DNA from: Candidatus Woesearchaeota archaeon
GTDB lineage: Archaea; Nanobdellota; Nanobdellia; SCGC-AAA011-G17; PNOQ01
Length of the DNA: 64,000 bases
Direction of reading: 5' to 3'
Assembly (NCBI GenBank): GCA_964344655.1
Contig: CAYFOF010000003.1
Location: 428 to 64,427, forward strand
The position numbers and the translations under genes were made by a program. The first letter of the stretch is position 1, and every line of letters starts with the position of its first letter. This document shows positions 1,355 to 16,530 of this stretch, one piece after another. Under the pieces are notes generated by a model that was given only the letters and a program-made list of their open reading frames with translations, made no database searches and was not told the origin of the DNA.

Positions 1355-1402
1355 ATATTCATTTTGGGTAAATCTTTCCTTTTTAAATGTTTTGAAAAAG
1401 AG

Positions 1403-1516
1403 TGGGCCTGACCGGATTTGAACCGGCGACCTCTGGTGTTCCTAGCATGCTATTGGATTATATCCAATAACCGTCATATAAGACCAGTGCTATAAACCAG
1501 ACTAAGCTACAGGCCC
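1403..1516 (-). tRNA. Intron-containing tRNA (about 114 nt); anticodon tentatively UAU (Ile) with a roughly 38-nt intron after position 37
   Basis: On the reverse complement: acceptor GGGCCTG/CAGGCCC plus discriminator A, and T-arm GCCGG-TTCAAAT-CCGGT. Anticodon stem CTGGT ... ACCAG is split by an insert that contains an internal TTGGAT/ATCCAA hairpin. The exon loop reads CTTATA|intron|C. Confidence 0.6.
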
Positions 1517-9965: not shown

Positions 9966-11174
9966 ATGTATAAAAAAGAGGAATTAAAACACCTTTGGAA
10001 ATTTTACGTTATTAATTTTACTGAGCATCTATTTGGTTTGGGAGTACTTATTTGGATAGTATATTTTGTAAGTAAAGGTTTTTCGTTTACAGAAGTGAGT
10101 TTAGCCTTAGCAATTTTTTCTGGGACATTATTTTTATTGGAAGTTCCCACTGGGGCGATTGCAGATATTTTTGGTAGGAAAAGAAGTGTATTTTTATCAT
10201 TCTTTTTAGTTGCATTATCCTCTTTACTAGTGCCATTTGTATCTGGATTTCTACAATTATGCGCTTTATGTTTTCTTTGGGGAGGAGCATTAACATTAGC
10301 ATCGGGAGCAGATGAGGCATTAGTAATAGATTATTTGCACAGAAAAAAAAGGAAGGACTTAATTGATGATTACTATGCAAAATCTGCTAGTATAAACCAG
10401 GTGGGTTTATTTTTTTCTGGTCTGTTATTAACGGGGCTTTTATTTATTTTAAATGATTCAATTAATTTTTCGGCCTATGATAAGATTTGGTTCATACAGG
10501 CAGGAGGTATGTTTCTTGTTGGATTAATAGCATTAACTATTGATGAAAAAATAAAAAAACCCAAGAAGCAAAATATTACATTTTTAAATACTTTGCATTT
10601 TTCAAAATCTGGATTTTCTTATGTAAAAAATCACAAAAAACTTTTGAAGATATTTATAGGATTCTCCTTTTTTAGTTTTGCTGGGTCTCTTTGGTATTTT
10701 GCATATCAACCATTTTTATTGAATTCTGGATTTGAAATGAAAGATTTTGGATGGATAGAAAGTTTAACAAGTATTTTTGGGGTATTTCTTCCTCTCTTTG
10801 CTATTAAGTTAGGAAAAAAATTCAAAGATAAGTATAAATTAATCTACTTTATATCCTTATTTAAGTTTATATTTATGTTTACAGTTTTATTATTTTTTGG
10901 CCCATTATTTGCACTAACATTTTATCTTATAATGGGAGGATTTGGTTTTTTTATATTTCCTATCTTAAATCCTATCATTCAAAAAAATATTCCATCTGAA
11001 AAGAGGGCTACAATTGGATCTATAAGGAATATGTTTTTTTCAATTGGAGAAATAGTGCCCCTATTATTTGCGGGGTTATTAGTAGATTTAATAGGTACAA
11101 AATTCACAATAATTGTTTCTGCATTGTTTATTATTCCTTTGATCTGGATATTTTATAGTTTAAGAAAAAGTTAA
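9966..11174 (+). CDS. Major facilitator superfamily transporter
   Basis: About 12 predicted TM helices, MFS-like loop motif GAIADIFGRKR between TM2 and TM3, 402 aa. Confidence 0.7.
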   Translation: MYKKEELKHLWKFYVINFTEHLFGLGVLIWIVYFVSKGFSFTEVSLALAIFSGTLFLLEVPTGAIADIFGRKRSVFLSFFLVALSSLLVPFVSGFLQLCALCFLWGGALTLASGADEALVIDYLHRKKRKDLIDDYYAKSASINQVGLFFSGLLLTGLLFILNDSINFSAYDKIWFIQAGGMFLVGLIALTIDEKIKKPKKQNITFLNTLHFSKSGFSYVKNHKKLLKIFIGFSFFSFAGSLWYFAYQPFLLNSGFEMKDFGWIESLTSIFGVFLPLFAIKLGKKFKDKYKLIYFISLFKFIFMFTVLLFFGPLFALTFYLIMGGFGFFIFPILNPIIQKNIPSEKRATIGSIRNMFFSIGEIVPLLFAGLLVDLIGTKFTIIVSALFIIPLIWIFYSLRKS

Positions 11175-12028
11175 TCCTTGGCAAATAGTTCTAGTGATTT
11201 TTTAACTGCGTTTAGCCTTGCTTGGAATATGTTATCACTATCTTTATAATTATGATCTAAAATGTGGTAAACAAAGGCTTCTGCAAATTGTTCATCGGCT
11301 TTTGCTATAGCATATTCTGCATCTATATCAAATCCTGGAGGGATTGAACTATAGAGGGATAAGTATGATGGATGGCCGGGAATTTTTTCTCCGTTATATG
11401 CTGCTGCATTATCTAGAAATTGAAATTGTAGCGTTAAATCTATTTGATTTTCTAACCCAATCATATCAAAATAAACATGTCCCATATTGTGGAGTACTTG
11501 TGCAACCATTGGTTTATCATATGGGACTGAAAATCTTTCATCTATTGGTTTAGGTAATGCACCAAAAAGAACAGGGATTGAGTTATTAAATGGGAAGTCC
11601 TTTTGATGTTCTTCAAAATTTTTCATAACAATTAGATAATGACCATAAGGATTCCAGTAGGGAACATTTACTTCAAAGAGATTTTCTGTGTTTGATCTTG
11701 GAACTCCGGGCATAGATTCACAAAATAGACTATCTGCTTCTGCAGATAGTTTGTCTATGTGTTTTTTTTCTATGAAAAATATGTCAGGTAAAAAATATTT
11801 TTCTTGAACGTTTATTTGGGCTACTGCTATAGCAGAAACTCCAAAAACAGAGAAACCATCTGTTGATAAATTTAGTTTTTGAGCTAGTGATTGTCCTTCT
11901 CTTAAATCTTCTTGTGTAATGTCTACTGTTTTTCTTGGTAAGTCTTGTTCTAACCTTCTTTCTAAACATCCGGACGAAGTTAAACTAATTGAAATTGCTG
12001 CTATTGCGGGAAGAATCAAATTTCTCAT
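11171..12028 (-). CDS. Hypothetical secreted lipoprotein (about 285 aa)
   Basis: Start trimmed to the internal Met giving MRNLILPAIAAISISLTSSGC (signal plus lipobox). The longer track ORF would overlap the LAGLIDADG gene. No recognizable catalytic motif. Confidence 0.5.
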   Translation of the reverse strand: MRNLILPAIAAISISLTSSGCLERRLEQDLPRKTVDITQEDLREGQSLAQKLNLSTDGFSVFGVSAIAVAQINVQEKYFLPDIFFIEKKHIDKLSAEADSLFCESMPGVPRSNTENLFEVNVPYWNPYGHYLIVMKNFEEHQKDFPFNNSIPVLFGALPKPIDERFSVPYDKPMVAQVLHNMGHVYFDMIGLENQIDLTLQFQFLDNAAAYNGEKIPGHPSYLSLYSSIPPGFDIDAEYAIAKADEQFAEAFVYHILDHNYKDSDNIFQARLNAVKKSLELFAKD

Positions 12029-12129
12029 AAAAAAGGAAGTTGAAGTTATGTTATAAAATGTTTGATTGTGGTTGTCAGCTTGCCAAACGTGCAGAGATTG
12101 TTTATATATTAAGTAAATAATAAAATCAT

Positions 12130-12840
12130 ATGGATAAAATAAGTGAAGAATTGGCGGAACTGATCGGGATACATATTGGTGATGGATGTTTGAGTAATAA
12201 TGGAAGATATAAGGAGGTCGCATTGGCGGGAGACCTTTTAGAAGAAAAGTCATATTATGATGATTACGTAGTTCCTCTTTTTAATAAAATAATCGCAAAA
12301 AATATTTTAAATAAAGAAGTAAAGGCCAAGGCATACCCATCAACAGGAGTTTATGGATTTTTTATTTTTAATGGAGCTCTTTTTGATCATTATGAATCAT
12401 TGGGGATCACAGTGGGATCGAAAATACGAACTAAAATCCCAGAAATCTTTTTGTCAAAAAAATTAATTAAGCATGTCATAAGAGGAATTTTTGATACAGA
12501 CGGAAATTTGTATTTTGACAAAAATAGAACTGCTAAAAATCCTATTAATAAAGTTCCAATAATTAAGTTATCTAGTACATCTAATATTCTTATAGAACAA
12601 GTTTTTAATGAATTAGTTAAATTAGGATATCACCCAAGAAAGAAAAAACCGTATAAGGGAAAAAGAGATAAAAATCAAAACCATATACTTCTCATTTATA
12701 GAAAAAAAGATGTAAAAAGATATATAGAAGAAGACATAGGATTCAATAATTTAAAACATCAAGTAAAGTGGGACTTTTTCAAAAAATATGGATACTATGT
12801 CCCTCGCATGACTACAAAAGACAGACAAAAACTTTTATAA
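12130..12840 (+). CDS. Free-standing double-motif LAGLIDADG homing-endonuclease-like protein
   Basis: Two LAGLIDADG-type motifs, LIGIHIGDGCL (N-terminal) and IRGIFDTDGNLYF (mid-protein). 236 aa and a basic C-terminus are typical of single-chain monomeric LAGLIDADG enzymes. Confidence 0.75.
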   Translation: MDKISEELAELIGIHIGDGCLSNNGRYKEVALAGDLLEEKSYYDDYVVPLFNKIIAKNILNKEVKAKAYPSTGVYGFFIFNGALFDHYESLGITVGSKIRTKIPEIFLSKKLIKHVIRGIFDTDGNLYFDKNRTAKNPINKVPIIKLSSTSNILIEQVFNELVKLGYHPRKKKPYKGKRDKNQNHILLIYRKKDVKRYIEEDIGFNNLKHQVKWDFFKKYGYYVPRMTTKDRQKLL

Positions 12841-12866
12841 ACACTCGCAGTTCCATTTTTGTATAC

Positions 12867-12952
12867 GCGGGTGTGCCAGAGTTCGGTCAAATGGGGTGGA
12901 CTTAAGATCCATCGGCTTAGTGCCTGCGCAGGTTCAAATCCTGTCACCCGCA
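12867..12952 (+). tRNA. tRNA-Leu (anticodon UAA), class II with long variable arm
   Basis: Acceptor GCGGGTG/CACCCGC plus discriminator A, anticodon stem GTGGA/TCCAT with loop CTTAAGA (anticodon TAA), long variable arm, and T-arm GCAGG-TTCAAAT-CCTGT. Length 86 nt. Confidence 0.85.
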
Positions 12953-15487: not shown

Positions 15488-16282
15488 ATGACAGAAAAAT
15501 ATCGTTTATTGAGAGCAGAAAAAAGATTGCCAGAAATAAATTTACTTGTGGCCCCACAGGGTGGGAAAACCAAGATTTTTGGCATTTTTGGAAAAAAACC
15601 ATTTCAATTTAATCTTGAAGATATGGGTTATGATTGTTATGATCCAACACATTATGGGGGTGTTGCTTATTTTAATTCAGCCGAGTTTCCAAATTTGTTA
15701 TTTAGGGAACCGCAAACCCAAGAATCGATATCTGTTATGTCTAATTGTGTTGAAAACATAGAAGAGTTTCAATTTGTTGGAGATATGGTCCCATTACAGT
15801 TGGGTAGGATGGTGATAACATCGGATGGTGTTTTTACAAATACTTATGAAACAAATGAACAAAAACTTATTGAACTTTTAAAAAACGCGGAAAAAGTTAA
15901 TGGAATTTATTTAATTAATGGTGGAATGGCCTTTGCGCCTTATGAAAGTTTTAAAATGGGTGTCCAATCTGGAGAAGATTTTGTGCAAGGAGGACTTGCA
16001 AGAGCATTAGAGCACACCCTAGAAAAATCTGCAGACAGATTGGAGACTATTGCATCAGAAGAATTTTTTCCAGAAGGAGTGAATGTTTCAGGATTTAATG
16101 ATCGAAGAAGAAATGACTCTCAAAGAATTGTTTCATTTTATCCTCAGGATTTACGTGGAATCGAATATCATAATTGTTTTTTTGAAGATCCTAAACTTAG
16201 ACTGATTGTTAGCTGTCAACACCCAAATGATTCTGGTTATGGGTATCTATTTGGAGTTTCAACAAACGAAAAAGTAGAATAA
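15488..16282 (+). CDS. Hypothetical protein (264 aa)
   Basis: Long ORF with typical composition; no motif recognized. Confidence 0.45.
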   Translation: MTEKYRLLRAEKRLPEINLLVAPQGGKTKIFGIFGKKPFQFNLEDMGYDCYDPTHYGGVAYFNSAEFPNLLFREPQTQESISVMSNCVENIEEFQFVGDMVPLQLGRMVITSDGVFTNTYETNEQKLIELLKNAEKVNGIYLINGGMAFAPYESFKMGVQSGEDFVQGGLARALEHTLEKSADRLETIASEEFFPEGVNVSGFNDRRRNDSQRIVSFYPQDLRGIEYHNCFFEDPKLRLIVSCQHPNDSGYGYLFGVSTNEKVE

Positions 16283-16406: not shown

Positions 16407-16530
16407 GCAGGCGTGCCGGAGTGGTCAAACGGGCTAGAGATTTATCGTCGGCTAAGCTTAGGCTACTCTTTAAGAGTATGAGAAACCTAGTGACTTAGTG
16501 TCTACGCAGGTTCGAGTCCTGTCGCCTGCA
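16407..16530 (+). tRNA. Interrupted (intron-containing, possibly multiply) tRNA of about 124 nt; isotype unresolved (D-arm resembles class II Leu/Ser tRNAs)
   Basis: Clean acceptor GCAGGCG/CGCCTGC plus discriminator A, T-arm GCAGG-TTCGAGT-CCTGT, and D-arm-like GCCGGAGTGGTCAAACGGGC. The interior contains palindromes CTAAG/CTTAG and ACTCT/AGAGT and roughly 35-40 extra nt; I could not place the anticodon by eye. Confidence 0.55.

Follow-up and report, generated by a model that had tools for sequence, protein, structure and literature searches.

The stretch analysed here (the window) comprises 64,000 nucleotides (nt) of a contig from a Candidatus Woesearchaeota archaeon, with a guanine plus cytosine (G+C) content of 31%. 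We focus on a gene for a LAGLIDADG homing endonuclease which lies directly upstream of a tRNA-Leu(UAA) gene on the same strand (Table 1). The open reading frame (ORF) begins with ATG and ends with TAA, and its translation is identical to the one quoted in the original prediction, a reading made from the letters alone. That reading had put the gene 26 nt upstream of the tRNA, and the placement of the tRNA by ARAGORN and Rfam gives the same distance from the stop codon. It had also proposed an AT-rich promoter region, and a TATA-like box is indeed found: the ATG lies 21 nt past its end (about 25 nt from the box). This archaeal geometry implies a leaderless or near-leaderless mRNA, provided that the putative promoter is correctly assigned. 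The tRNA gene has a predicted promoter box of its own, which includes the stop codon of the endonuclease ORF (12838-12840). On the upstream side, a minus-strand ORF of 360 amino acids (aa) as listed overlaps the start of the endonuclease gene. Its true start is likely the methionine at about 12031, which opens a lipoprotein signal peptide with its cysteine (MRNLILPAIAAISISLTSSGC) and is conserved in the closest relative of the window (locus L081; related loci are referred to by such numbers). The lipoprotein gene and the endonuclease gene are therefore divergent and do not overlap. No integrase or transposase partner gene accompanies the endonuclease ORF.

Table 1. Features of the window discussed in the text (positions in the window; position 1 is its first letter)
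Feature	Position	Strand	Evidence or remark
LAGLIDADG homing endonuclease gene, free-standing, single-chain, 236 aa	12130-12840	+	ORF, Pfam, homologues, model, dN/dS
Motif 1, LIGIHIGDGCL, residues 12-22	12163-12195	+	catalytic D18 at 12181-12183
Motif 2, IRGIFDTDGNLYF, residues 117-129	12478-12516	+	catalytic D124 at 12499-12501
Tandem 8-nt element GTTGTCAG CTTGCCAA (CTTGYCAG CTTGCCAA)	12071-12086	+	about 15 nt upstream of the endonuclease TATA box
TATA-like box TTTATATAT of the endonuclease gene	12101-12109	+	sequence; same TATA-to-ATG layout in 4/4 close relatives
TATA-like box TTTATAAA of the tRNA-Leu gene (predicted)	12834-12841	+	25 nt before tRNA +1; invariant in the window, L081, L001 and L083
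tRNA-Leu(UAA), intron-less, partner gene of the endonuclease branch	12867-12952	+	ARAGORN; Rfam 55.4 bits
Second tRNA-Leu, read as Leu(UAG), two introns; unoccupied site	16407-16530	+	Rfam 38.1 bits; alignment with L123 and L180
Minus-strand ORF as listed (lipoprotein gene)	11171-12253	-	likely start at about 12031
ORF upstream of tRNA-Leu(UAG)	15488-16282		not a LAGLIDADG protein
tRNA-Ser(UGA)	1402-1516		38-nt intron

The protein belongs to a large archaeal family. Its second half matches Pfam LAGLIDADG_3 (E = 5.6e-10), the sole Pfam family found. Among the candidates of a word-index search, 171 homologues reach E <= 1e-3; nearly all are 235-245 aa long, and they come from Woesearchaeota, Pacearchaeota, Nanoarchaeota and other DPANN metagenome bins. 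An exhaustive search yielded 348 clusters (at 50% identity) at E <= 1e-10 and 1343 at E <= 1e-3, and the family is widespread in DPANN, with 435 or more matches in species-representative genomes. Between the window and L081 (85% identity) the ratio of nonsynonymous to synonymous divergence (dN/dS) is 0.09 at a synonymous divergence (dS) of 0.87, and it ranges from 0.09 to 0.18 at deeper nodes. The Pfam match, the number of homologues and this low ratio together argue that the ORF is not a chance reading frame.

The original prediction described a monomeric enzyme with two LAGLIDADG motifs, and the structural evidence agrees with it. Within an alignment of 30 homologues (33-100% identity) both catalytic aspartates, D18 and D124, are invariant, as are G17-D18-G19 and D122-T123-D124-G125; a loss of the aspartates, which had been raised as a possible sign of degeneration, is not seen. 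The AlphaFold2 model built from this alignment (predicted local distance difference test score 95.8, predicted template modelling score 0.92) displays two α-β-β-α-β-β-α units, which start with the helices at residues 6-18 and 110-123, whereas the C-terminal 30 residues form two helices. Each unit thus combines a motif helix, ended by an acidic residue, with a β-sheet DNA-binding saddle, as is typical of single-chain two-domain LAGLIDADG enzymes. A basic stretch, HPRKKKPYKGKRDKN (residues ~168-182), had been taken for a DNA-binding tail; in the model it is instead a loop and hairpin of the second saddle, between the β-strands at residues 170-175 and 184-189. Searches with Foldseek against the PDB returned I-Tsp061I, the Thermococcus litoralis (Tli) VMA intein endonuclease, bI3 maturase, E-DreI, PI-SceI, I-AniI and I-DmoI, all at a probability of 1.00, the top matches being I-Tsp061I (2dch, E = 3e-9), the Tli VMA intein endonuclease and I-DmoI. 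Taken together, the model and the alignments indicate a constrained single-chain LAGLIDADG enzyme with intact active-site residues, which presumably cleaves DNA.

The best structural matches, I-DmoI and I-Tsp061I, have the same fold and domain order (for I-DmoI, a template modelling score of up to 0.78, normalised by target length), an acidic residue at the end of each LAGLIDADG helix and an archaeal origin. They differ in genomic context, as both are encoded inside rRNA introns and cut intron-less rDNA while the window gene stands free beside a tRNA gene. Sequence identity to the window protein is only 14-16%, and the window protein has in addition a conserved C-terminal helical module with an NPKH-x-TKW motif. 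By sequence, the family profile reaches among solved structures only PI-PfuI (1dq3) and the Tli VMA intein endonuclease (7qsu), at E = 4e-7 to 4e-6. These two share the Pfam family LAGLIDADG_3, and both motifs align in register, with D18 and D124 on the motif acidic residues. Unlike them, the window protein has no Hint or splicing domains and no host protein, and it has its own start codon and putative promoter.

Such relatives, intein endonucleases by sequence and archaeal intron enzymes by fold, would be expected if the ORF were what is left of an intein, or of an archaeal bulge-helix-bulge or group I intron, with an overlooked host gene. We find this scarcely credible. Rfam reports only tRNAs, both across the whole window at the gathering threshold and between 11500 and 17000 at E <= 1, so that no rRNA or other RNA family spans the ORF, as the bulge-helix-bulge context of I-DmoI would demand; a hidden intron or ribozyme was rejected on the same result. 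Neither an extein nor intein splicing blocks are present in the 236 aa, where LAGLIDADG_3 stands alone, and a match to the NCBIfam model of an intein-containing DnaB helicase covers the endonuclease part only (17.8 bits against a cut-off of 780). The ORF begins at its own ATG behind a TATA-like box, its flanks are the unrelated divergent lipoprotein gene and a complete tRNA, and the inverted repeats between these flanks are merely AT-rich, TATA-like matches. Moreover, the empty-site comparisons described below show insertion into intergenic DNA. The free-standing status claimed at the outset is therefore upheld: neither an intein nor an rRNA or group I intron is detectable around the gene.

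The original prediction used the tRNA as a landmark for the position of the gene. Its location was right but its role was underrated, since adjacency to a tRNA is the defining feature of this endonuclease family. We compared 80 related loci from species-representative archaeal genomes, together with the window (81 loci), using ARAGORN in intron mode. A link was defined as a tRNA start on the same strand within -20 to +80 nt of the stop codon, and the remaining ORFs of these loci, if 150 aa or longer, served as controls. Such a tRNA follows 37 of the 80 family ORFs and 13 of the 579 other ORFs (Fisher p = 2e-27). The true share is higher than counted, since partner tRNAs frequently contain multiple introns and are then missed by ARAGORN and Rfam alike; with a T-loop pattern as a further criterion, the linked family ORFs rise to at least 48 of 79. 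The linked tRNAs start -16 to +80 nt from the stop codon. Inspection by eye and alignments revealed, straight after the ORF in L001, L007, L010, L012 and L083, a tRNA-Leu(UAA) gene that contains two to four introns.

The family is also specific in its choice of neighbour. In a neighbour-joining tree of 79 proteins, the sequences group by partner tRNA, with branches for Leu-UAA (which contains the window gene), Leu-CAA, Leu-GAG, Arg-UCG, Ile-GAU and His-GUG. All 15 members of the Leu-UAA branch with a readable 3′ flank have tRNA-Leu(UAA) next to them (the window, L001-L004, L006-L008, L010-L012, L081, L083, L097 and L086, the last being a contig-end fragment of the ORF only). L005, which has an internal stop, and L009 show only unresolved tRNA-like 3′ ends near the ORF. 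In the Ile-GAU branch several intron-containing partners are misnamed by ARAGORN; they have their 5′ sequence in common. The proteins of the His-GUG branch are longer (343-349 aa). The genome JABHZE01 carries a Leu-UAA-type and an Ile-GAU-type copy, each at its corresponding tRNA. Some branches of the family lack a downstream tRNA; in a few of these, a tRNA 3′ end lies 70-180 nt upstream, and a search for conserved neighbours of the branches without tRNA found none. To our knowledge, free-standing archaeal LAGLIDADG genes have hardly been studied. Full-text literature searches, which left subscription journals mostly outside, found no description of archaeal LAGLIDADG genes flanking tRNAs, and we regard the novelty of the association with tRNA 5′ flanks as provisional.

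The position of the ORF relative to the tRNA promoter follows a common pattern. The tRNA-linked branches that were inspected have a TATA-like box at about -35 to -27 relative to the tRNA +1 position, where it overlaps the end of the ORF or follows just past it. The stop codon falls inside this box in the branch of the window (cTTTTATAAa) and in that of Ile (cTTATAAat). For Arg-UCG, Leu-CAA, Leu-GAG, His and Leu-UAG, the box is contained in the last codons of the ORF, which enters the tRNA and stops at the ‘TAG’ formed by U8-A9-G10 or slightly beyond.

Comparisons between syntenic loci reveal occupied, empty and decayed sites. A scan of metagenome contigs with the 3′ half of the window's tRNA-Leu type yielded 120 loci, a sample unbiased as to the endonuclease. 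Only a minority have the endonuclease ORF upstream, and endonuclease-less alleles greatly outnumber linked ones. The occupied locus L097 and the empty locus L188 share about 6 kb of syntenic flanks, 77-84% identical at the nucleotide level, and their tRNA-Leu(UAA) genes have the same sequence. In L188 the upstream gene ends 37 nt from the tRNA; in L097 the distance is 1511 nt and includes a cysE-like gene and the endonuclease. In L180, compared with L123, a clean insertion of about 600 nt separates the ribosomal protein L37e gene from the promoter of tRNA-Leu(UAG). The insert consists of a promoter with a ATTGTCAAGC motif and a 206-aa LAGLIDADG ORF, inserted about 55 nt upstream of the tRNA and reading into it. 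A 9-nt direct repeat, AAGTAGATT, flanks this insert (L180:1100-1135 and 1690-1715); it is a single case and may reflect chance, microhomology or target duplication. Additional syntenic pairs of occupied and empty sites were seen, so that the presence/absence check suggested by the original prediction gave a positive answer in relatives; at the window's own locus, the closest relatives (L081, L001 and L083) all carry the gene. Decayed copies, which a cycle of invasion, fixation and decay predicts, occur as well: L044 has many stops, L005 one internal stop, and L185 retains only the last 91 aa, still abutting tRNA-Leu(UAA).

The window itself contains an empty site for a related endonuclease. 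Its second tRNA-Leu gene was missed by Rfam at default filters and was recovered with permissive ones, and ARAGORN miscalls it as Leu(taa), placing an intron at position 26. When aligned with L123 and L180, the gene reads as tRNA-Leu(UAG) with two introns, one in the anticodon stem (about 18 nt) and one at position 37/38 (about 22 nt). Some 50 nt of upstream sequence are conserved between this locus and L180, and further upstream the similarity is gone. The ORF which precedes it is not a LAGLIDADG protein, and no second LAGLIDADG gene was found before the window's other tRNAs.

Upstream of the endonuclease gene, the tandem 8-nt element (Table 1) is conserved in an alignment with L081, L001 and L083, and synonymous sites are saturated among such relatives. 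Exact copies are confined to the closest relatives, and the 64-kb window holds no second convincing copy; a regulon sharing this motif in the window genome was rejected on that ground. In other branches the motif CACTGG(A/T)CA takes a comparable place, at a fixed distance from the downstream TATA box; most copies precede the ATG by 51-53 nt, the farthest by 82 nt (upstream regions of L014-L018, L041, L042, L070, L072, L075, L076 and L079). It occurs exactly 20 times in 851 kb, and 14 of these occurrences lie at that position before family ORFs; one more precedes another LAGLIDADG gene and one an XPD-like helicase gene (L072:11734). As the motif of L180 sits inside the inserted segment, it travels with the endonuclease gene. 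The element of the window is probably a regulatory site which moves with the ORF, and a site for a host regulator or autoregulation are both possibilities for its role. The T-variant of the motif and the D-loop of certain tRNA-Leu genes both contain CTGGTCAA. That the motif imitates the tRNA D-loop (CTGGTCAA against GGTCAAA) and serves I-TevI-style autorepression was considered and set aside as speculation; the likeness extends over 7-8 nt only and is absent from the Ile and Arg branches.

The explanation we favour, with evenly balanced confidence, is that the gene forms a compact selfish homing-endonuclease cassette specialised on the 5′ flank of tRNA-Leu(UAA), within a tRNA-specialised family that spans DPANN. 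The cassette of this Woesearchaeota-like DPANN archaeon would consist of the upstream regulatory motif, the TATA box and the leaderless ORF, placed directly 5′ of the tRNA. The enzyme would cut a long site in or beside the cognate tRNA locus in cassette-free genome copies or cells, and repair from an occupied copy would bring the adjacent ORF along, as for free-standing phage endonucleases. The tRNA gene would offer a target conserved across species. Insertion into its 5′ flank would do no harm, as the tRNA TATA box coincides with the end of the ORF or follows it directly and the tRNA promoter so stays at the right distance. The fold, the intact active-site residues, the purifying selection, the link to tRNAs, its branch specificity and the empty, occupied and decayed alleles are observed; DNA cleavage, the target position and homing itself are inferred. 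More tentatively, the family as a whole may be a DPANN radiation of LAGLIDADG homing elements, in which each lineage recognises one tRNA gene and inserts 5′ of it, with the ORF ending in the promoter or inside the tRNA; we regard this wider picture as possible rather than probable.

A precedent for the proposed mechanism exists in bacteriophage T4, where SegB is a free-standing homing endonuclease gene in a tRNA gene cluster (PMC2330249). The SegB recognition site includes conserved tRNA sequence, the T-psi-C stem-loop, and as a result of cleavage the gene and the tRNA genes on its flanks are inherited together (PMC2330249). SegB is the nearest analogue of the window gene by genomic niche, not by ancestry: it is a GIY-YIG enzyme of a bacteriophage, whereas the window gene encodes a putative LAGLIDADG nuclease in an archaeal chromosome and has no GIY-YIG domain by Pfam. 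Also unlike SegB, the endonuclease branches keep to one tRNA species each, and the gene invariably lies 5′ of that tRNA on the same strand. A viral or plasmid origin was rejected, as IMG/VR contains only distant relatives (<=35% identity in viral contigs).

Several observations weigh against a homing cassette. First, the overlap of stop codon and TATA box is ordinary in such compact genomes and not special by itself, as unrelated upstream genes also end at the tRNA TATA box (L123, L139 and L188); it is the enrichment of tRNA neighbours and the attachment of each named branch to the 5′ side of one particular tRNA gene which are not ordinary. Second, a mechanism of self-immunity is not visible at the compared loci, since the tRNA has the same sequence in the occupied L097 and the empty L188; immunity through a variant tRNA allele was rejected on this identity, and the other alleles show no consistent difference by eye. 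Third, the sequence to the left of the insertion varies between species, and therefore neither a tRNA-internal nor a junction-spanning target is fully satisfactory. Fourth, the inheritance of the window copy resembles that of its surroundings. The lipoprotein gene evolves fast, with 54% identity to L081, but its dS of 0.86 is nearly that of the endonuclease gene (window against L081, one pair only), while its dN/dS of 0.39 is four times higher. The G+C content of the endonuclease gene and that of its third codon positions (GC3) are host-like, and the window, L081, L001 and L083 are all occupied at the same tRNA with neighbours partly shared. No sign of horizontal transfer is found in this single-pair comparison, and a recent transfer of the window copy was rejected on the equal dS and the host-like composition. 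The copy thus appears to have been inherited vertically for long under strong purifying selection. A purely selfish gene, once fixed in a lineage, should drift unless populations remain polymorphic; vertical inheritance fits an element which is still homing in polymorphic populations and fits a host-used protein equally well.

The main rival, which we hold to be rather unlikely, is a former homing endonuclease kept by the host as a site-specific nuclease or DNA-binding factor. It might, for example, promote repair or gene conversion at the tRNA loci of polyploid cells, or regulate the locus; presence and absence would then reflect loss and lineage-specific gain. The constraint on the protein, stronger than on its neighbour at equal dS and maintained at deeper nodes, agrees with such a role, as do the host-like composition, the wide distribution in DPANN, the intact state of most copies and an upstream motif found once at the promoter of a host XPD-like helicase gene. 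Purifying selection is, however, also known for homing endonucleases which re-invade repeatedly, and the full retention of the catalytic residues is as in active homing enzymes. The gene is moreover dispensable: related genomes with an identical tRNA lack it, most sampled tRNA-Leu(UAA) genes do without it, and decayed copies exist. Finally, many paralogous branches, each on a different tRNA, resemble the target specialisation of mobile elements rather than one host function.

The original prediction also considered a link to tRNA introns. Intron-containing tRNAs do occur nearby, namely tRNA-Ser(UGA) and the second tRNA-Leu, but the suggested connection is not supported. If the protein helped to process or splice the adjacent pre-tRNA, as LAGLIDADG maturases do with group I introns, the up to four introns of tRNA-Leu(UAA) in relatives would find an explanation, and the fold search does match the maturases bI3 and I-AniI. 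These two are similar in fold; they are encoded in group I introns and act on intron RNA, whereas the window has no such intron. The tRNA beside the window gene is intron-less, and intron-less tRNA-Leu(UAA) genes are as frequent with the endonuclease (4/11) as without it (7/21). Archaeal tRNA introns are removed by a protein splicing endonuclease, with no need for a maturase. Pure maturases usually lose the catalytic aspartates; both are invariant here. A maturase-like or RNA-directed role is thus very improbable. ‘Collaborative homing’, in which an intron splits the target, was rejected on the same counts.

The multi-intron tRNA-Leu(UAA) genes of DPANN are worth mentioning in their own right (L083:5750-5960 and L001:6732-6876; also L012, L010 and L007). 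Their introns lie in the D-loop, at the D/anticodon junction, in the anticodon loop and in the T-arm. Neither ARAGORN nor Rfam at the gathering threshold detects these genes, and tRNA complements are therefore probably under-annotated. In the DPANN-like contigs L101, L168, L186, L192 and L139, a tRNA-Leu has the anticodon loop CTAAGGA, which gives the anticodon AAG; tRNAs with A34 are unusual in archaea. L157:3520-3690 contains a 14-nt copy of the 5′ end of tRNA-Leu(UAA) (GCGGGTGTGCCAGA) 85 nt upstream of the full tRNA, and a TATA box precedes this first copy; a long D-loop intron with an exon-repeating end or the scar of a past insertion could account for it.

Some further loci show unusual arrangements. 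In the Leu-UAA branch, L005 (1-945) and L009 (1-5046) adjoin rRNA operons, and each has a nearby unusual tRNA-like sequence that ends in ...ACCCCCGCA. L138:1560-1760 holds a 52-aa ORF between promoter and endonuclease ORF. The same syntenic slot behind an RNA-polymerase-subunit-like gene is filled by tRNA-Leu genes that differ in anticodon in L138 (loop CTTAAGG, Leu UAA) and L139 (4860-5000, loop CTAAGGC), which may hint at a tRNA replaced together with the cassette. In the window, a 16-nt inverted repeat (15/16 complementary) pairs coding sequence just past motif 2 (12518-12533) with the stretch that separates the tRNA from its TATA box (12847-12862); it is not kept in L081 (11/16) and is probably due to chance.

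The window gene represents a family of hundreds of sequence clusters, in which each branch keeps to the 5′ flank of one particular tRNA gene. Routine annotation does not reveal this association, since many of the partner tRNAs have two to four introns and go undetected by standard tRNA finders. The empty, occupied and decayed alleles form a natural series in which the persistence of homing endonucleases in small, compact genomes can be studied. If these enzymes do cut tRNA loci, they would constitute a new kind of tRNA-targeting mobile element which does not need an integrase, and natural meganucleases whose targets are long, conserved and predictable could readily be drawn from them. In that case tRNA genes would be a battleground in archaea, and the family would offer a concrete agent for the old idea that the disruption of tRNA genes, by introns and by splitting, evolved under pressure from tRNA-targeting elements.

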